A stretch of 64,000 nt of DNA from an uncultured bacterium (GCA_964482725.1 CAYZYT010000006.1:19777-83776), one strand, 5' to 3'; counted from the stretch's first letter, positions 13,047 to 53,340 are shown. The notes: generated by a model from the letters alone, not told the origin. Made by a program: numbers and translations.

Positions 13047-13823
13047 TTAAGCGCCGATGCCGGGCTCGTAGCCGGAAAGCATAGCGACCACTTCCCCGAG
13101 AACGGGGACCTTGACCTTCATCACGAGCGGAATGCGACGCTCGTCCAGGCTCATCCAGCCACGGACTTTTCCGCGACGGACAAAAAAACCTTCGAACAAA
13201 ATGATCGGCTCGACTTCGACCGCCTGAAAAACACCCACATCCTCGATCTTCATTTCCTTAATGCCATGCGTAACAACTTCAAGGTCCCAGTTCTTTTCAT
13301 CCGCATTGACCGGGATCAGGGTCTTGGAATCGGGTTTTAGATCCTGCATCCGGAGCCAATAGCAGCAAGAGATCTGGTCCTGGACGTTCTGCGGGACGAA
13401 CATTTCCTTCCGGCTGTTGTCCTTGCGGGAATAAAATCGGCCGACATGCTCGTCCTGGTTATATTCCATCGACTCGTCCGTCCAGTAACTTCCCTCTTTG
13501 ATCTTTTTTTCGTAACGAAGAGAATGAAAATGCTCAGCATCGATATAGGTGTGATGCGTGTCCCGAACCTTGTAGATCCAGTCGAGGATCGCGCGAGACC
13601 GGACGTTGATCTCGATATGATAAGCATCGCGCCCGTTCACTTTCACAAGTCCTTTGACTTCGGCCTCCGCCTCCCCCACCGTGATCCCGAGATAACTGAC
13701 TTCAAACTTTATTTTCTCTCCGAGAAAGATCTTCGCCGCGGGTTTTTCAGAGGCTGGGAAAATTTTTTCCGGCTCGGGGGCGGAAAACCCCATGGGGATC
13801 AAGACCAGCATAAACATTGTCAT
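13047..13823 (-). CDS. DUF3108-like secreted protein
   Basis: It has a signal peptide MTMFMLVLIPMGFSAP and then beta-rich blocks (IKFEVSYLGITVGEAEAEV...). The track ORF continues to 13943 only by reading through the hairpin repeat. Confidence 0.45.
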   Translation of the reverse strand: MTMFMLVLIPMGFSAPEPEKIFPASEKPAAKIFLGEKIKFEVSYLGITVGEAEAEVKGLVKVNGRDAYHIEINVRSRAILDWIYKVRDTHHTYIDAEHFHSLRYEKKIKEGSYWTDESMEYNQDEHVGRFYSRKDNSRKEMFVPQNVQDQISCCYWLRMQDLKPDSKTLIPVNADEKNWDLEVVTHGIKEMKIEDVGVFQAVEVEPIILFEGFFVRRGKVRGWMSLDERRIPLVMKVKVPVLGEVVAMLSGYEPGIGA

Positions 13824-13880
13824 TCCCGCGAAAGCGGGGATCCAGAATCTGGATCCCCGATAGAAGATTTCGGGGATGAC
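13819..13880. repeat. Nested palindromic hairpin-repeat element (complete, gene-less copy A)
   Basis: The sequence is gtcattcccgc-gaaa-gcggg GATCCAGAATCTGGATC cccga-tagaagatt-tcggggatgac. It consists of two terminal hairpins and a central 9+9 palindrome. It translates as ...RFWIPAFAGMT. Confidence 0.8.
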
Positions 13881-14671: not shown

Positions 14672-15763
14672 TCAGAGGGACTTTTTCTTTATCATTTCCA
14701 TCGCTTCATCGGGCGTCAGGTCTTTCAAACACGCGATCGTCGGACACTGCTTATTGTAACGGAATTTGTAATAACAGGGACGGCATTCGAGGTCCCGTTT
14801 AAAAATGGCGATCGCGTCATGCGAAGGCGGGAACGGTCCGTAGACCTCGGGCGACACGGGACCATAAAACGCAATGAGCGGCACATGGAGCGCGCGCGCC
14901 AAATGCACCAGACCTCCGTCATTCCCGATAAAAAGCGAGGATTTCGTCAGTACCATGGCCGTTTGCGCAAGCCGAGTCTCCCCCGCTAATACAACCGAGG
15001 GCGGCTTGAGCATCGCCTGTAATTCTTCACAAAGCGCCCGCTCGGAGCGGCTGCCCAGGATAGCAACGCCATGAAAGCCCCGCTCCGCCTGAAGCTTTGC
15101 GATCAACTCCGCGAAATATTTCACGGGCCAACGTTTGAAAGCAGCCTCTTTCCCCCAAGAGTCTCCCCCGCCGGGGGCGACCGCGAGAAAACGCTCCGGC
15201 AGAAGCCTGATCTTGTCGGCGACCTCGACTTCGATCAACGACGTGGGCCTGGGGAAATAATATTCCAGAAAACGGTCTTCCACGGGGATTCCGGCCGCTT
15301 CAGCAAGATCACAATAAAAGTCCACGGCATGCCGCTTCCAGAACGCCTCCGGAAGCGGGAAGCGGATATTATGAAACGTTGCGCGTTTTTTGTACGCGAA
15401 TCCCGCGCAGCGCGGAATCCCCAGAAAGAACCGGCCGAAAAAAGCATGCTCGCGCCGGAGCGAATAATCCAGGATCAGGTCATAATGCTTCGCCCGGAGC
15501 TTCCGGCCCAAATCCCAACTGTCGCGAAGATTTTCCAGCCAACTCTGACGATGGGCGCGATCCTTATCCACGACAAAAATATCATCGATGTGAGGATTAT
15601 TTTCCACAACCTCGCGTGTCCGGGACCCCAAAAGCAGATCGACGGTCTCGACCGTCGGGATGAGGCGCAACGCGCGCATCACCGGCGTCACAAAAAGAAG
15701 ATCCCCGATCCCATACGGATGCACGATCAAAATGCGTCTTAAGGTTCTCATACCTCGCTTCAC
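14672..15763 (-). CDS. Glycosyltransferase family 9 (ADP-heptose:LPS heptosyltransferase-like)
   Basis: It has the N-terminus RILIVHPYGIGDLLFVTPVMRAL and a C-terminal GNDGGLVHLA(R)ALHVPLIA block. Confidence 0.8.
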   Translation of the reverse strand: MKRGMRTLRRILIVHPYGIGDLLFVTPVMRALRLIPTVETVDLLLGSRTREVVENNPHIDDIFVVDKDRAHRQSWLENLRDSWDLGRKLRAKHYDLILDYSLRREHAFFGRFFLGIPRCAGFAYKKRATFHNIRFPLPEAFWKRHAVDFYCDLAEAAGIPVEDRFLEYYFPRPTSLIEVEVADKIRLLPERFLAVAPGGGDSWGKEAAFKRWPVKYFAELIAKLQAERGFHGVAILGSRSERALCEELQAMLKPPSVVLAGETRLAQTAMVLTKSSLFIGNDGGLVHLARALHVPLIAFYGPVSPEVYGPFPPSHDAIAIFKRDLECRPCYYKFRYNKQCPTIACLKDLTPDEAMEMIKKKSL

Positions 15764-25338: not shown

Positions 25339-25416
25339 GTCATTCCCGCATGCTTTAAGCGGGAATCCATTTTTATTTCTCGCTCTGGATCCCCGACAAC
25401 AACATTCGGGGATGAC
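25339..25416. repeat. Hairpin-repeat element (gene-less copy B) between waaA and xerC
   Basis: The sequence is gtcattcccgc-atgctttaa-gcgggaatcca [16-nt spacer] tggatccccga-caacaacat-tcggggatgac. Confidence 0.8.
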
Positions 25417-28455: not shown

Positions 28456-28730
28456 AAGAACTCCTTGGTAAGTTATAAGTCATAAGAAAGCGTTAAGCAT
28501 TAAGCGGTAAGCGCTAAGTTAAGCCTGTTCCCTCCCGCTTAGCGCTTACAGCTTATCGCCTGCTTTCAAGAGATGGGATTCTAAACAAAATGCGGGAGAT
28601 TGTAAACCGCAAGTTTATCGGACGCTTGTAACCCGTTTAACAAAAAAGGGTTAAGAGAATTGATGCGCCGCCAGGCTTCACCCCATCCCCACACCTTTAA
28701 ACACCGGAAAACTCCCTGCAAAGGACAGGG

Positions 28731-29758: not shown

Positions 29759-30020
29759 CTTTGACTCCTTTCGTTGAAAGAACTTTTTCCTTTAACAAGA
29801 CATGGTTTCATATGAAACTCTATAGAGGAAACACCCGTCTGTCAAAACCTTTTCTGCTGAATCGCCCTACTAATAACGGCCTCCCTGCGCCGGAGCTTAA
29901 CGGACGAAAACAGCAAAAGTCACAAGGTCTCCCAGTCACCATGAGCACAAGGCACAAAGCTCAAAGCGAAGCGGAGCAGGATTATCTCTCCCTTGTCCCG
30001 CGGAGACCGCATAAAACGCT

Positions 30021-30053
30021 GTCATCCCCGAATGCTTTTGTCGGGGATCCAGG
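30021..30053. repeat. Half of a hairpin-repeat element (terminal hairpin, copy C), 3 nt from the GIY-YIG stop codon
   Basis: gtcatccccga-atgcttttg-tcggggatccagg is the reverse-complement orientation of the right arm of copy A. Confidence 0.8.
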
Positions 30054-30056
30054 ACA

Positions 30057-30347
30057 TCAGACGATCCTTTCAAAAAGGTCAGCCCACTCGGGATTAAAAC
30101 TTTCAATCAGCCTAAGTTTCCACTTCCGGTTCCATTTCTTGATTTGTTTCTCACGGACGATCGCATCTTCTATGCGTCGCGTTGCTTCACAGTAAACCAG
30201 CAACTTCATCCCATACGCTTTCGCAAAACCTTCTACCAAACCGTTCCGGTGTTCATAAGCCCGTCTTGCGAGATCATTGGTTACGCCGACATACAGAGTC
30301 CCATTCCTCCTGCTCGCCATGATATAGACATAATACGCCTCAAGCAT
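30057..30347 (-). CDS. GIY-YIG nuclease superfamily protein (UPF0213/YhbQ-like)
   Basis: YYVYIMASRRNGTLYVGVTNDLARRAYEHRNG gives GIY...YVG, the conserved R and E-H-N. It is 96 aa. Confidence 0.85.
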   Translation of the reverse strand: MLEAYYVYIMASRRNGTLYVGVTNDLARRAYEHRNGLVEGFAKAYGMKLLVYCEATRRIEDAIVREKQIKKWNRKWKLRLIESFNPEWADLFERIV

Positions 30348-30356
30348 TTTTCTTTA

Positions 30357-30383
30357 CTGGATTCCCGCCTCCGCGGGAATGAC
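30357..30383. repeat. Other half of the hairpin-repeat element (copy D), 9 nt upstream of the GIY-YIG start
   Basis: ctggattcccgc-ctcc-gcgggaatgac is the reverse-complement orientation of the left arm of copy A. It translates as ...RLRGNDK in the plus-strand shadow ORF. Confidence 0.8.
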
Positions 30384-30514
30384 AAGCATTGAAAACATCC
30401 TTTCTTTTCTCAGTTTGGTGACTTTGTGTCAAGGTGACCTTTTGCCTTGGTGTCTTGGTGCCTTTGTGACATTGTGTCTTGGCGACCTTTTTCGTTTACA
30501 TTTTTCTCTTCGCG

Positions 30515-31786
30515 CTATCGGAGCGAATATTTTCCGTCTCCTGCTCTCTTGATCTTACCTGCCAATTCAAGCCTAAGAAGCTGCACCGGCAACTTCGCGG
30601 GTTCAAGCCCCGTAAACTCAAGTATTTCACTTAAACCCAGAGAACCTTCCTCCTTGAGAAGCTCCGGGATGATCGATTCTTCTTCCGGGATGTCCCGATC
30701 GTCTCCCCCAAAGCACCCTTCCATTTTTTCATGCTTTACCTCCTGCTCGCCTGCCGGTTGTCCGTTGACCACCTTCTTTTCGCCTTGTGTCTTGTGACTT
30801 TGTGACAAGTGACTCGATGTCTGTCGTTGACCGTCGTCCGTTGACCGTTGATCATTACTTCCCGTGCCTTCCCCATCGGACGTCGAGAACGCCGGTTCAA
30901 ATTTATTTTCCCATTTCAGCCGGTCGGCAAGCGCAAGAAGGATATCCTCAGGGGTTTCCACAAGGCATGCGCCTTCCTTGATGAGTTGATGGCATCCGCG
31001 CGAAGTCAATTGATCGACGGGACCCGGGAGGGCGAAAATTTCCCGCCCCTGCTCAACTGCCTGATGCGCTGTAATGAGAGACCCGCTCCGGGAGTGAGCC
31101 TCCACGACAAAGGTAGCATACGAAAGCCCCGAAAGAATCCGGTTCCTGCGTGGAAAATTCTCCGGAAGCGGCGGCGTCCCCAAGGGATATTCACTCAAAA
31201 TGGCGCCCCGCTCCGCGATCTTCTTAAAGAGCCCTTCGTGCTCCTTCGGATAGATCACATCAAGCCCGCAACCCATGACCGCGATCGTTCGACCGTAAGA
31301 GACATGGAGTGCACCGTCGTGCGCCACCTGGTCGATCCCGCGCGCGAGGCCTGAAACGATCGTCAAGCCTCGCGCAGCGAGCTCCTGCGCGAAGCGCTTG
31401 GCCTGCGTCCGTCCATAAAAACTCGGATGCCGCGTCCCGACGATCGCAATCGCGTTCCGGTCATTCTCGAGCAAGGCTCCTTTTTTATAAAGAACGAGCG
31501 GCGGGTCCGAGACCTCTTTAAGGAGCGCCGGATACTCGCCGTCCGAGTAGAGTAAAAAATCGATCCCTTTTTGCGCACAAAGCTCGATCTCTTTTTCCGG
31601 ATTAAAAGAAAGCGCATTTTCCGCGGCTGGAAGCTCCTTCAAAAGATCTTCCACTTCCATCCTTACGGCGATTTCCCCCGCATTTTTCCCTTCCGAAAGA
31701 AGCGTGATGACCCTGCGCCTTCCTTCGATCCTGAGCCGGTTCAGCATCAGGAACGCCCGGACTTCCGCCGCTTCGCCTGATGTCAT
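30515..31786 (-). CDS. dprA: DNA processing protein DprA (Smf) with a low-complexity linker and a C-terminal winged-helix domain
   Basis: It has a Rossmann-like DprA core (IVSGLARGIDQVAHDGAL...GSLITAHQAVEQGREIFALPG) and a C-terminal wHTH (EILEFTGLEPAKLPVQLLRLELAGKI). Confidence 0.85.
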   Translation of the reverse strand: MTSGEAAEVRAFLMLNRLRIEGRRRVITLLSEGKNAGEIAVRMEVEDLLKELPAAENALSFNPEKEIELCAQKGIDFLLYSDGEYPALLKEVSDPPLVLYKKGALLENDRNAIAIVGTRHPSFYGRTQAKRFAQELAARGLTIVSGLARGIDQVAHDGALHVSYGRTIAVMGCGLDVIYPKEHEGLFKKIAERGAILSEYPLGTPPLPENFPRRNRILSGLSYATFVVEAHSRSGSLITAHQAVEQGREIFALPGPVDQLTSRGCHQLIKEGACLVETPEDILLALADRLKWENKFEPAFSTSDGEGTGSNDQRSTDDGQRQTSSHLSQSHKTQGEKKVVNGQPAGEQEVKHEKMEGCFGGDDRDIPEEESIIPELLKEEGSLGLSEILEFTGLEPAKLPVQLLRLELAGKIKRAGDGKYSLR

Positions 31787-32295
31787 GGGTGAAACCCGAT
31801 CAGCCTTTTTTTTCGGACGGGCGGGTTGGAAAGTCTGCGAACCGCGTTGAAGAGAGCTCGGAAATTCGCATCGTACTGCATTTCCATTTCTTCGATCTTC
31901 CTGGCCAGATCCTTGTGGGACGCAAGAATCTCTCGCAGCCGGACAAAAGCCCTCACGACCTGGAGGCTCATCCGGACCGCCAAGCGGGTATTAAGCACGG
32001 TTGCAAGCATGATCGCCCCATATTCGGTAAATGCGTTTGGAAGCGCCGATGAAAATTTGAGCTTCCTGAGGTGGTCGCAATTTGCGACCACCTCCTTTTT
32101 CTCTTCCAGAGTTAATCGAAACATGAAATCTGACGGAAAACGGTCCACATTTCTCCGCACCTGCTCATTAAGCCTCTTGGTGCTGACCCCGTAAAGCCCC
32201 GCAAGATCGGCATCCATCATCACCTTTTGCCCTCGCAGGAAGAGAATAGTCTTGAAGATCCTTTCATGAGGAACAAGACAGGTTCGCTTTTTCAT
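31783..32295 (-). CDS. ORF6N-domain protein (KilA-N-related, phage antirepressor-like N-domain)
   Basis: RGQKVMMDADLAGLYGVSTKRLNEQVRRNVDRFPSDFMFRLT is the ORF6N signature. It overlaps the dprA start by 4 nt. An AT-rich 96-nt region lies upstream. Confidence 0.7.
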   Translation of the reverse strand: MKKRTCLVPHERIFKTILFLRGQKVMMDADLAGLYGVSTKRLNEQVRRNVDRFPSDFMFRLTLEEKKEVVANCDHLRKLKFSSALPNAFTEYGAIMLATVLNTRLAVRMSLQVVRAFVRLREILASHKDLARKIEEMEMQYDANFRALFNAVRRLSNPPVRKKRLIGFHP

Positions 32296-38700: not shown

Positions 38701-38759
38701 AAAAAAGGGACAACGGTCAACGAACAACGAATTTACAAAACGTTGCCCGTTGACCGTTG
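38701..38759 (-). terminator. Hairpin plus U-tract between ilvC and leuA (candidate internal terminator or attenuator)
   Basis: On the minus strand, CAACGGUCAACGGGCAACG pairs with CGUUGUUCGUUGACCGUUG. The stem has 19 pairs, including two G-U wobble pairs. It is followed by UCCCUUUUUU and then the leuA start codon. Confidence 0.55.
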
Positions 38760-38765
38760 AACGAT

Positions 38766-39764: not shown

Positions 39765-39847
39765 TTTATTTTCCTTTCTTATGAGCTCAAAGTTCAAGGC
39801 TCAAAAAATTTTGAGCTTTGCGCCTTGCGCTCTGTGCTTTTTTTGAA

Positions 39848-40396: not shown

Positions 40397-40490
40397 AAGA
40401 ACTCCTTTTCACTAGCGTTTAGGGTTTAGCGTATAGGGTTTAGAAAATCGAGGCTCTTCCTATCCCCTAACCCCTACACCCTACTATTTT

Positions 40491-50154: not shown

Positions 50155-50232
50155 AAGCGAACGCATTATACAACAAATAAACAACAGCGGGAAACGTGGA
50201 ACGGGGAACGTAAAAACTTTTTTCGTTAAGCG

Positions 50233-51126
50233 TTACCCGTTCACCGTTCCCCGGGCCGCTTTCAAGGCCTCAGCCAGACTCACGAACTGCTCCAGAGAAA
50301 GGGTTTCGCCGCGAACTTTGGCAGAGAAGCCAAGCTTTTCGAACATGCGTTCGAGATCTTCGCGCCCCTGTTTCGGCTTAAGGTGATGCAACAGTAAGGA
50401 TAAAAGAGTTTTGCGCCGCTGGCTGAACGCGATCTTGATGACCTCGAGCAGAAATTTCTCGTGACCTGTCCGTGGGATATCACGAAAAACATACCGGACC
50501 ACGCGCGAGGTTACTTCCGGCGGCGGAAGAAAACACTTGGGCGAAACATCAAAAAGGAACTCGGTTCTTCCGTAGAAGCTGCTCGTAACGCTCAAGCGTC
50601 CGTAATCATCATCCCCCGCTTGCGCGGTAAGCCGCGCGGCGACTTCTTTTTGGAGCATCATCACCGCGCTTGAAAAGACTTCGGCGTGTTCGACGAGATG
50701 GAACAGAATGGGCGTCGAGATGTAGTAAGGAAGGTTCCCGATCACTTTGAAGGGGCCAGGCACTTTTCCATGCCCTTCTGAAAAAGGTGACTGACCCCCT
50801 CCGCTGATCAATTTCGTCAGGTCACACTTCAAGATGTCCGCGTGGACCAGCTTGAAAGTGTCGAGGTATTCCGGCGCAAGCTCCTGCGTCAAGATCTCGA
50901 CGAACTTCTTGTCTGTTTCCACCGCAAGTAAAGGAAAGCCGCGTTGCAAGATTTCTTGCGTCACGGCTCCGAGTCCCGGTCCGATCTCAAAGACGCGATC
51001 GCCCGGTTGAAGTTCTAAGGCATCGACGATTTTGCGGATCGTGTTCGGATCCATCAGGAGATGCTGGCCCAGGTGGCCGCGGATCCGAAGCCCGTATTTT
51101 TTGAGTAGCTCTATCTGCGTGAGCAT
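50233..51126 (-). CDS. rsmA: 16S rRNA (adenine1518/1519-N6)-dimethyltransferase
   Basis: It has a SAM-binding motif (VFEIGPGLGAVT) and sits at the ksgA position after pdxA. Confidence 0.9.
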   Translation of the reverse strand: MLTQIELLKKYGLRIRGHLGQHLLMDPNTIRKIVDALELQPGDRVFEIGPGLGAVTQEILQRGFPLLAVETDKKFVEILTQELAPEYLDTFKLVHADILKCDLTKLISGGGQSPFSEGHGKVPGPFKVIGNLPYYISTPILFHLVEHAEVFSSAVMMLQKEVAARLTAQAGDDDYGRLSVTSSFYGRTEFLFDVSPKCFLPPPEVTSRVVRYVFRDIPRTGHEKFLLEVIKIAFSQRRKTLLSLLLHHLKPKQGREDLERMFEKLGFSAKVRGETLSLEQFVSLAEALKAARGTVNG

Positions 51127-52158: not shown

Positions 52159-53340
52159 CACAGGACCAGAGACCACAGACTACAGACCGCAGAAAAAAAT
52201 TACCTCACACCTGATCTCTCTCCGCAGGGGTGACGGTTGGGCGAGGGAGTCTCCAGTCTCTAGTCTGAAGTCTACTTTATGGAAATGTATGCCGCCTTCT
52301 TAACCTCTTCCATCCAATCGCGGAATCTCGCGTTGCTTTTCTGCTGAAAGAGATATCCGGCGATCTGGTCTTTCACTTCTTCAAAATAGCGAACCTTCTC
52401 GGGCTCTCTCGCCTCAATGCGAAAAATGTGATACCCGATCGGCGTCTCCACGACCCCCGTGATCTCCCCCGGGGAAGCCTTGAAGATCACCTCATCGACG
52501 GATTCGATCATGGCCCCTCGCTCGATCCATTCCCCAAGGCCATCCTGCTTGGCATGACTGTCCTCTGAAAAATCCTTCACGATCTTGTCAAAATTCCTGT
52601 AGATCCGGATCTTTTGCGCCAAAAGCTCGGTCCGCTGTTTTGCTTTTTCGTCCGTCAACCCCTTCGTCCGAGCTTCTTCGCTTTTCTTGATCGTAAGCGA
52701 CTTGACCCGAACGCGTTCTTTGATCTTGAACTGATCAGGATTTTTCTTGAAGAAATCTTCTATCTCGGTCGGAGACACGATCACCTTGGAACGGATCTCA
52801 CGGTCTTGAAGCTGGCGGACCATGGCCTGCTTCTTGAGCCGCTCGCGGAGAGCTTTCATTGTGAGGCCTTCTCGCTCGAGCATCGCGTCCAAATCCTCAG
52901 GATTGTCCATCTTAGCTTTGAACGCCTGAAACTCCTTCTCCGCATCTTCGTCTTTAACCTCGATCCCCATCAAAATCGCTTCCTGATATACCAGCTTGTC
53001 CTCGATCATTTGGCTCAGGACTTTTTGGCGGACCTCGTTGATCGCTTTCACAAGCTCTTGGCCGCTGTATTCTTTGCTGTATTGCTCGTAAATCGGCCGG
53101 AGAAAGGTGTCCAGTTCAGCCTGGGTGATGACCTCGTCATTGACCACCGCCACCACACGGTCGAGCAGTTCTTCCTGCGCGGCGTGGACAAGTGGCATGG
53201 CCAAAAAGAGGGACACGATGAGTATCAATAAATGTCGTTTCATAGAGGAGGCATTATACAACATTTCAGACTTCAGACTACAGACTTCAGAACACAAAAA
53301 AACGCATGCTTTAGTCTGCCGTCTGTGGTCTGTGATCTAC
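52159..53340. repeat. Four copies of a CAGACT/AGTCTG word-built imperfect inverted repeat bracketing the surA-like gene
   Basis: The four copies are 52159-52192 cacaggaccagagaccacagactacagaccgcag, 52247-52275 gagtctccagtctctagtctgaagtctac, 53266-53290 cagacttcagactacagacttcag and 53314-53340 gtctgccgtctgtggtctgtgatctac. Confidence 0.7.
52272..53243 (-). CDS. SurA-like periplasmic chaperone / parvulin-type peptidyl-prolyl isomerase
   Basis: It has a signal peptide (MKRHLLILIVSLFLAMPLVHA), a SurA N-domain and one parvulin domain (GYHIFRIE). The track's TTG start at 53297 lies inside a repeat. Confidence 0.75.
   Translation of the reverse strand: MKRHLLILIVSLFLAMPLVHAAQEELLDRVVAVVNDEVITQAELDTFLRPIYEQYSKEYSGQELVKAINEVRQKVLSQMIEDKLVYQEAILMGIEVKDEDAEKEFQAFKAKMDNPEDLDAMLEREGLTMKALRERLKKQAMVRQLQDREIRSKVIVSPTEIEDFFKKNPDQFKIKERVRVKSLTIKKSEEARTKGLTDEKAKQRTELLAQKIRIYRNFDKIVKDFSEDSHAKQDGLGEWIERGAMIESVDEVIFKASPGEITGVVETPIGYHIFRIEAREPEKVRYFEEVKDQIAGYLFQQKSNARFRDWMEEVKKAAYISIK

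Follow-up and report, generated by a model that had tools for sequence, protein, structure and literature searches.

The stretch of DNA analysed here, called the window, comprises 64,000 nucleotides (nt) of one strand from an uncultured bacterium (GCA_964482725.1 CAYZYT010000006.1:19777-83776) and contains a small nuclease gene, ssn, that is enclosed by two hairpin-forming repeats. These repeats are of the kind described as Ssn-related motifs (SRM), and two further pairs of them without a gene, doublets A and B, lie elsewhere in the window. The gene order is aroK-aroB-ORF6N-dprA-ssn unit-RDD-orf138-topA-xerC-doublet B-kdtA, with all genes on the minus strand. The following features were located, with positions counted from the first nucleotide of the window.

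30057-30347, minus strand: ssn, encoding a single-domain GIY-YIG nuclease of 96 amino acids (aa), Ssn family (cd10448-like); start codon 30345-30347, stop codon 30057-30059.
30021-30053, plus strand: hairpin C, the 3' SRM hairpin, type 2, GTCATCCCCGA-ATGCTTTTG-TCGGGGATCCAGG.
30357-30384, minus strand: hairpin D, the 5' SRM/NTS-like hairpin, type 1, 9 nt ahead of the ssn ATG.
13819-13880: gene-less SRM doublet A, with a type 1 hairpin on the plus strand (13819-13845) and a type 2 hairpin on the minus strand (13850-13880), tail to tail.
25339-25416: gene-less SRM doublet B in the xerC-kdtA spacer, with a type 1 hairpin on the plus strand (25339-25370) and a type 2 hairpin on the minus strand (25386-25416).

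The gene, both hairpins and elements A and B were all found where an earlier sequence-only reading of the window had put them, and its statement that gene-less copies exist also held: A and B each combine the two hairpin types of the gene unit, oriented the other way round. Type 1 hairpins have a TCCCGC stem and type 2 hairpins a CCCCGA stem with a 9-nt loop, and each of the three units (A, B and the gene unit) has one of each type. On the gene strand, hairpin D reads GTCATTCCCGC-GGAG-GCGGGAATCCAG (30384-30357; CTGGATTCCCGC-CTCC-GCGGGAATGAC on the plus strand of the window), and hairpin C reads CCTGGATCCCCGA-CAAAAGCAT-TCGGGGATGAC (30053-30021), beginning 3 nt past the stop codon. Both read GTCAT-stem-loop-stem-ATCCAG toward ssn, one on each strand, and are thus inward-facing. 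The halves of doublet A are joined by the palindrome GGATCCAG-AAT-CTGGATCC, and a spacer of 14-16 nt separates the two hairpins of doublet B. According to the sequence-only reading, the gene had replaced this central palindrome; the palindrome is actually split, and both halves are retained (ATCCAG, gene, CTGGAT). When folded as single-stranded DNA (ssDNA) and compared with 200 shuffled sequences, doublets A (z=-5.3) and B (z=-3.7) and hairpin D (z=-3.25) each beat all shuffles, and hairpin C beat 195 of them (z=-2.5); doublet A was predicted to form one long hairpin. A strict scan of the 64 kb (GTCA[TC], an 8-nt arm with at most one mismatch, a loop of 3-45 nt, the complementary arm, C[CT][AG]) returned these six hairpins and one chance-like match, and nothing else. 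The density of hairpins in the window is thus low, at 6 per 64 kb, and all of them are paired.

The 96-aa protein matched PF01541 (GIY-YIG) over residues 5-78 (E=8e-15), with no further match in Pfam. BLASTP against the 94-aa SsnA ortholog of Neisseria gonorrhoeae gave 56% identity in a gapless alignment over 90 aa (E=2e-37), and a tblastn search of N. gonorrhoeae NZ_CP119140.1 returned E=2e-26. Both values lie below the E < 1e-10 that serves as the homology criterion for the Ssn family (PMC11893778) and support the membership of the window protein in this family. SsnA itself is the 94-aa product NMV_0044/NMB0047 of Neisseria meningitidis, in which residues Y6, Y17 and E64 were mutated (PMC11893778); the gonococcal open reading frame (ORF) agrees with this description in its 94 aa and in Y6, Y17 and E64. 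Residues Y8, Y19 and E66 of the window protein align with these three and were invariant in an alignment of 24 homologs. Homologs at 60-78% identity were found in Omnitrophota, Zixibacteria, Patescibacteria, Pseudomonadota, Bacteroidota, Ignavibacteria and other phyla. A length of 96 aa leaves no space for a separate DNA-binding domain. NCBIfam holds no model specific to cd10448, and TIGR01453 matched weakly, over residues 7-35 (29 residues), at 18.6 bits against a cut-off of 56. The UPF0213 label that the sequence-only reading had attached to the protein was mistaken, as UPF0213 members in PDB matched at E values of around 1e-4 only (1ZG2, E=1.3e-4; 1YWL, E=8.6e-4), compared with the 56% identity to the Neisseria enzyme. 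Escherichia coli YhbQ, for which an approximate query sequence was used, gave 25% identity. As a side observation, the Neisseria ssnA sequence used here was obtained from PLSDB, which files two 2.17-Mb N. gonorrhoeae chromosomes as plasmids.

The Ssn family corresponds to CDD cd10448 (GIY-YIG_unchar_3) and has been described together with its SRM (Chenal et al. 2025, Nat Commun 16:2388; PMC11893778), so that the earlier statement that such GIY-YIG genes had no known tie to a repeat family is outdated. In Neisseria, the motif named NTS is CGTCATTCCCGCGMAVGCGGGAATCYRG, an extension of the dRS3 repeat, and the SRM is its degenerate form (PMC11893778). Hairpin D, taken with the preceding T, matches this NTS consensus at 27 of 28 positions when compared by eye. 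Genes homologous to NMV_0044 have an SRM nearby in 71% of cases and on both sides in 42% (PMC11893778). SsnA and three homologs bind the hairpin solely as ssDNA and cut only one of the strands, a few nt upstream of the hairpin, and SsnA reduces transformation by NTS-bearing DNA (PMC11893778). The same authors likened the arrangement 'NTS-ssnA-NTS' to an insertion sequence (IS), to IS200/IS605 and to REP/RAYT, and raised the hypothesis of a mobile element and its domestication (PMC11893778). A literature search for follow-up work on SRM mobility or on doublets found none.

The generality of the arrangement was surveyed in 80 loci with ssn homologs, taken from species-representative genomes of many phyla. 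Hairpins were scored within 120 nt of the gene as GTC[AG], an 8-nt arm with at most one mismatch, a loop of 3-45 nt, the complementary arm and C; these criteria had been tightened after an earlier, looser scanner performed at chance level (33 matches, compared with 33.7 in simulated sequence). A plus-oriented hairpin was present upstream of the gene in 57 of the 80 loci and a minus-oriented hairpin downstream in 63, whereas simulated sequence gave an expectation of about 0.01 matches per 135-nt bin per strand. The association between gene and hairpins is at least 50-fold above chance. The link that had been noted at this single locus is thus general, with inward-facing hairpins on both sides of the gene in 54 of the 80 loci. 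Among hairpin pairs that span a gene, 52 of 72 have the inward-facing layout; among neighbouring pairs without a gene, 43 are tail-to-tail, 18 head-to-head, and 6 and 11 fall into the two direct orientations. The stems vary among taxa, and the GTCAT and ATCCAG ends are constant. Arms were more similar within a unit (7.0 of 8 positions) than between units (6.1 of 8), and perfect agreement at 8 of 8 positions was found in 37% of comparisons within units as opposed to 13% between them. A Parcubacteria contig (L067, 461-5330) carries three divergent ssn genes within 5 kb, and the hairpins of each gene form a matching pair of their own. The CCCCGA stem type was also seen in other phyla (L048, L051).

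Read from its sequence, the window locus very probably represents the published Ssn/SRM system in Omnitrophota and is composed of ssn, two inward-facing cognate hairpins and gene-less tail-to-tail pairs. Three observations weigh against this assignment. Firstly, the gonococcal ssnA locus (L144, NZ_CP119140.1, 1880787-1884056) has outward-facing hairpins, with CTGGAT...ATGAC lying about 105 nt upstream of the gene and GTCAT...ATCCGG beginning 3 nt after its stop codon, and the hairpin geometry is therefore not uniform across the Ssn family. Secondly, the type 2 hairpins and hairpin D, whose loop begins with G, fail the loop rules of the published degenerate SRM pattern, which matches two of the six window hairpins, namely the type 1 arms of A (13818-13845) and B. 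Thirdly, dprA adjoins ssn in one of the 80 surveyed loci, L001, which belongs to the same lineage as the window.

A functional link between ssn and dprA, with SsnA acting on transforming ssDNA, was considered and rejected as a general feature, since that single locus is of the window's own lineage. As a separate observation on genomic context, the neighbours of ssn in a Taylorbacteria lineage (L145-L149) are a TraC-like type IV secretion gene on one side and a TraG-like one on the other, and some samples have a 48-aa GIY-YIG fragment upstream of ssn.

By homology to SsnA of N. meningitidis, the window enzyme would act when the DNA becomes single-stranded and the hairpin GTC-AT-stem-loop-stem-AT-C extrudes. 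The nuclease would then bind the hairpin in a strand-specific manner and hydrolyse the strand a few nt 5' of GTCAT, leaving double-stranded DNA (dsDNA) and RNA uncut. Placing the cuts as for the Neisseria enzyme predicts them at about 30014-30019 on the plus strand and about 30386-30391 on the minus strand; because both hairpins face inward, each strand would be cut once, just beyond an end of the unit. Cleavage at the central GGATCCAG/CTGGATCC palindrome, which had been proposed from the sequence, conflicts with the published SsnA biochemistry, in which only ssDNA is cut, 5' of the hairpin and outside the unit. By analogy with Neisseria, the most likely role in vivo would be to restrict or modulate motif-bearing ssDNA that is incoming or exposed, in addition to a selfish or domesticated spread of hairpin pairs.

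A different account of the gene's position is homing, in which a free-standing nuclease gene entered the centre of an existing palindromic doublet and spreads by break repair into empty doublets. GIY-YIG homing endonucleases are an established class, and ssn lies exactly between the ATCCAG and CTGGAT halves, both here and in the 52 inward-facing pairs of the survey. The sequence-only reading had offered this as its alternative, and the published ssDNA-only cleavage speaks against it: the characterised SsnA leaves dsDNA uncut, and its cut falls outside the doublet and not in the middle of it (PMC11893778). The protein also lacks the separate DNA-binding domain of the I-TevI type, homing would have to make do with homology arms of just about 30 nt, the gene is present in one of the three window units, and the spacers of A and B contain no remnants of gene ends. 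We therefore regard homing as very improbable.

The history of the site was examined in 58 metagenomic relatives that were collected via the RDD protein. A lineage-specific insertion was delimited in the window.

29901-30514: lineage-specific insertion, 614 nt long, bounded by the dprA stop codon (30515-30517) on one side and by the conserved spacer on the other, and holding the Ssn unit and the outer arms.

The conserved spacer starts with TTAAGCTCCGG (29890-29900, minus strand). In most relatives it is the only sequence between dprA and RDD, with a length of 137-160 nt and the form TAAGCTCCGGCG...TTGACA-17-TAGAGT...AGGAG, and it starts at TAAGCT, the TAA of which is the dprA stop codon. In the window, dprA ends in a new TAG stop, and 614 nt separate this TAG from TTAAGCT; the C-terminus of DprA in most relatives is ...LxC before the stop, as against ...L[RQK]. 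The promoter-like site of RDD (29845-29817 in the window) is conserved in relatives. Among the 58 RDD-bearing relatives, ssn was present in one (L087), which belongs to the lineage of L001, a metagenome-assembled genome of Omnitrophota. L001 has the same synteny and the same type 1 and type 2 hairpins, with an Ssn protein 77% identical to that of the window and neighbouring proteins 78-93% identical, and the syntenic L001 and L087 loci have an identical hairpin C, down to the loop. Since L001 is syntenic at 77% Ssn identity, the Ssn unit has been inherited vertically for some time; it is vertically inherited in at least two lineages and absent from most relatives. Three loci with 20 kb of synteny and XerC proteins 92-95% identical (L141-L143) contain no ssn, no doublet in the xerC-kdtA spacer and no SRM hairpin. 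The gene unit and doublet B are thus both polymorphic for presence and absence. As these close Omnitrophota relatives are without the gene, doublet B or any hairpin, the gene unit is an insertion. When related Omnitrophota loci, about 270 kb in total, were subjected to the strict scan, true hairpins were confined to those with ssn.

These data also bear on another explanation, according to which ssn would be a housekeeping gene of UPF0213 type, its hairpins merely terminators or regulatory stem-loops, and the likeness of A and B due to a generic repeat. The hairpins are indeed intergenic, and ssn showed no sigma-70-like promoter, which makes read-through from dprA possible. This explanation is already contradicted by the association of gene and hairpins at 80 loci across many phyla, by stems that vary by taxon between constant GTCAT and ATCCAG ends, by relatives that lack the hairpins along with ssn, and by the weak similarity to UPF0213. 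In addition, no run of T was found downstream of the hairpins flanking ssn. We assign this explanation virtually no probability.

A further reading is that the unit is an active IS-like transposon, with the GIY-YIG protein as its transposase and the gene-less doublets as non-autonomous derivatives resembling REPINs or miniature inverted-repeat transposable elements (MITEs). The terminal hairpins are inverted, with predicted cut sites just beyond both ends, and the doublets share their type 1 and type 2 ends with the gene unit. The predominance of tail-to-tail pairs among gene-less repeats across phyla, and the presence of the gene unit and doublet B in the window lineage but not in its close relatives, fit such mobility, and homologs of 60-78% identity in unrelated phyla suggest horizontal spread. 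On the other hand, inspection of all three units by eye showed no target-site duplications or flanking direct repeats, and a single copy of the gene is present in 64 kb. No identical Ssn proteins were found in differing contexts: the proteins P0026 (24 contigs) and P0074 (13 contigs) each occur in one genomic context only. The synteny with L001 indicates long vertical inheritance. GIY-YIG chemistry is hydrolytic, and we know of no strand-transfer chemistry for these enzymes. Furthermore, with one cleavable hairpin per strand in each unit, the excision of one strand at both ends, as in IS200/IS605, is impossible. The autonomous element inferred by the sequence-only reading is thus borne out with regard to polymorphism and the dominant gene-less tail-to-tail pairs, but not with regard to target-site duplications or a change of context, and we consider an active transposon rather unlikely. 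Transposition is a hypothesis, previously raised by Chenal et al. 2025.

Outside the two SRM hairpins, the insertion contains a second pair of inverted sequences.

29916-29968: outer arm on the RDD side, with A/C-rich periodic words of 7-8 nt on the plus strand; not an SRM.
30414-30487: outer arm on the dprA side, with T/G-rich periodic words of 8 nt on the plus strand; the imperfect inverted partner of 29916-29968.

The arms align over 41 nt each (29917-29957 and 30440-30480) with 73% complementarity, and TRF reported periods of 8/16/24 for the arm on the dprA side. The proximal part of the arm on the RDD side (ctttgagctttgtgcc ... tgttttcgtccgTTAAGCT on the gene strand) is homologous to an arm at the same site in L117, L088, L001, L141 and L143. 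In L001 the RDD-side arm is kept and the dprA-side arm is gone, and in L089, L141 and L143 only a remnant is present. At the same dprA-RDD site, L088 (688-1405) and L117 (901-1498) carry a gene of the PF05635 family (23S rRNA intervening-sequence protein; E=4e-36 and 7e-35, respectively), flanked by heptamer arms that are 89-94% complementary and of which the RDD-side arm is homologous to that of the window. The bracket of GGTGAC/TTGTG words recognised in the sequence-only reading is therefore a real, though imperfect, inverted repeat, but a separate module. Its inclusion in the Ssn element was rejected, as one side is absent in L001 and equivalent arms flank the PF05635 gene in L088 and L117. 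These loci, together with the heptamer hairpins found genome-wide, indicate that the Ssn unit is nested in a separate hairpin module with lineage-variable cargo, and the dprA-RDD site resembles a hairpin 'slot' in which small cargo genes can be exchanged.

Such intergenic heptamer hairpins were also observed at 28488-28518, 38710-38760, 39784-39840, 40413-40481, 50188-50253, 52159-52266 and 53265-53291. They consist of arms of 3-5 tandem heptamers, a short loop and the complementary heptamers, as in GACAACG GTCAACG AACAACG ... CGTTGCC CGTTGAC CGTTGAA (z=-7.1 when folded as ssDNA). Because the heptamer differs at every site, they are not copies of one repeat. They occur in relatives as well (e.g., in the xerC-kdtA spacer of L141); no run of T follows them, and neither they nor any other part of the window matched a family in Rfam. 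Between the arms of the heptamer hairpin at 52159-52266, a 55-nt insert (52194-52247) contains ccgcaggggtgac (GTCACCCCTGCGG on the other strand), which resembles half an SRM and may be either a decayed hairpin in the apex of another hairpin or a chance match. A single exact GTCATTCCCG at 14918-14927, inside a long ORF and with no complementary arm, is probably due to chance.

One tentative view, which we hold to be unlikely, is that the Ssn unit and the doublets form a truly mobile REPIN-like system that would be driven by a hydrolytic GIY-YIG ssDNA nuclease in place of an HUH transposase and would preferably insert at the single-stranded apices of other hairpins between genes, here a heptamer/octamer hairpin, the site of which is a PF05635 slot in sister lineages.

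Other small differences were noted around the insertion. An ORF6N-domain gene (31783-32295, minus strand) lies between aroB and dprA in the window and in L001, and is missing in L141-L143, where the gap is about 155 nt. A DUF7544 gene is present between RDD and orf131 in L141 and L143, and not in the window. The stretch from aroB to topA, taken as a whole, is a patchwork of small insertions. Inside dprA (30515-31786, minus strand), positions 30784-30851 contain the tandem heptamers CTTGTGA (four copies) and CGTTGAC (four copies). When compared with the DprA of L001, these encode a low-complexity, lineage-variable linker from the DprA core to the winged-helix domain.

When compared with known systems, the window protein shares with UPF0213/YhbQ (PDB 1ZG2, 1YWL) its fold class and a similar size, and differs from it in the weak sequence similarity; to our knowledge, UPF0213 proteins have no repeat association. 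With homing endonucleases of the I-TevI type it shares the GIY-YIG catalytic domain and the flavour of a selfish element, whereas those enzymes have several domains and cleave dsDNA, and their genes lie in introns or stand free in phages. IS200/IS605 elements likewise have subterminal hairpins that are recognised in ssDNA, with cleavage offset from the hairpin. Their Y1 transposase cuts both ends on the same strand, in contrast to the window unit, which has its hairpins on opposite strands and encodes no transposase-type chemistry. A parallel may also be drawn to REP/REPIN-RAYT, where inverted hairpin doublets are accompanied by a mostly vertically inherited, single-copy gene that is flanked by its own repeats and encodes a protein recognising the hairpin as ssDNA. 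The REPIN-like trait is present here in that the repeats are mainly inverted doublets (43 compared with 18, 6 and 11) and that A folds as a single long hairpin. The enzymes differ, as RAYT is an HUH/Y1 enzyme with covalent strand transfer and Ssn a hydrolytic GIY-YIG protein (PF01541, not Y1_Tnp). The dRS3 sequence of the Neisseria dRS3/NIMEs (ATTCCC-N8-GGGAAT) is the palindromic core of the type 1 hairpin. There, dRS3 is a bare 20-bp palindrome beside RS repeats and a phage integration site, while the window repeats have conserved, oriented flanks (GTC and CCAG) and occur in tail-to-tail pairs.

The system to which the locus corresponds most directly is Ssn/NTS-SRM of Neisseria. Both have a single-domain GIY-YIG protein of about 95 aa with the catalytic Tyr/Tyr/Glu aligned, the hairpin form GTCAT-TCCCGC-loop-GCGGGA-ATCCAG, motifs on both sides of the gene and extra intergenic copies. 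Accordingly, the window locus is not a new kind of element and does not establish a new mechanism; a nuclease-repeat partnership published in 2025 was recovered independently from raw sequence and extended to Candidatus Omnitrophota, a host phylum that is not named in the main text of PMC11893778. The window hairpins face inward, in contrast to the outward-facing ones of gonococcal ssnA, and the copies are sparse (6 per 64 kb) and all in tail-to-tail pairs. The present locus goes beyond the main text of that paper in several respects. The gene sits exactly at the junction of the two hairpins of a tail-to-tail doublet. Among gene-less repeats across phyla this kind of doublet predominates, which makes it analogous to REPINs. 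Empty-site alleles of both the gene unit and the doublet exist in close relatives. The hairpin type with a CCCCGA stem and a 9-nt loop, which is missed by the published search pattern, and the heptamer-hairpin 'cargo slot' are further additions to the published description. These additions bear on how SRM repeats multiply, and could guide the choice of new Ssn/hairpin pairs as ssDNA tools.

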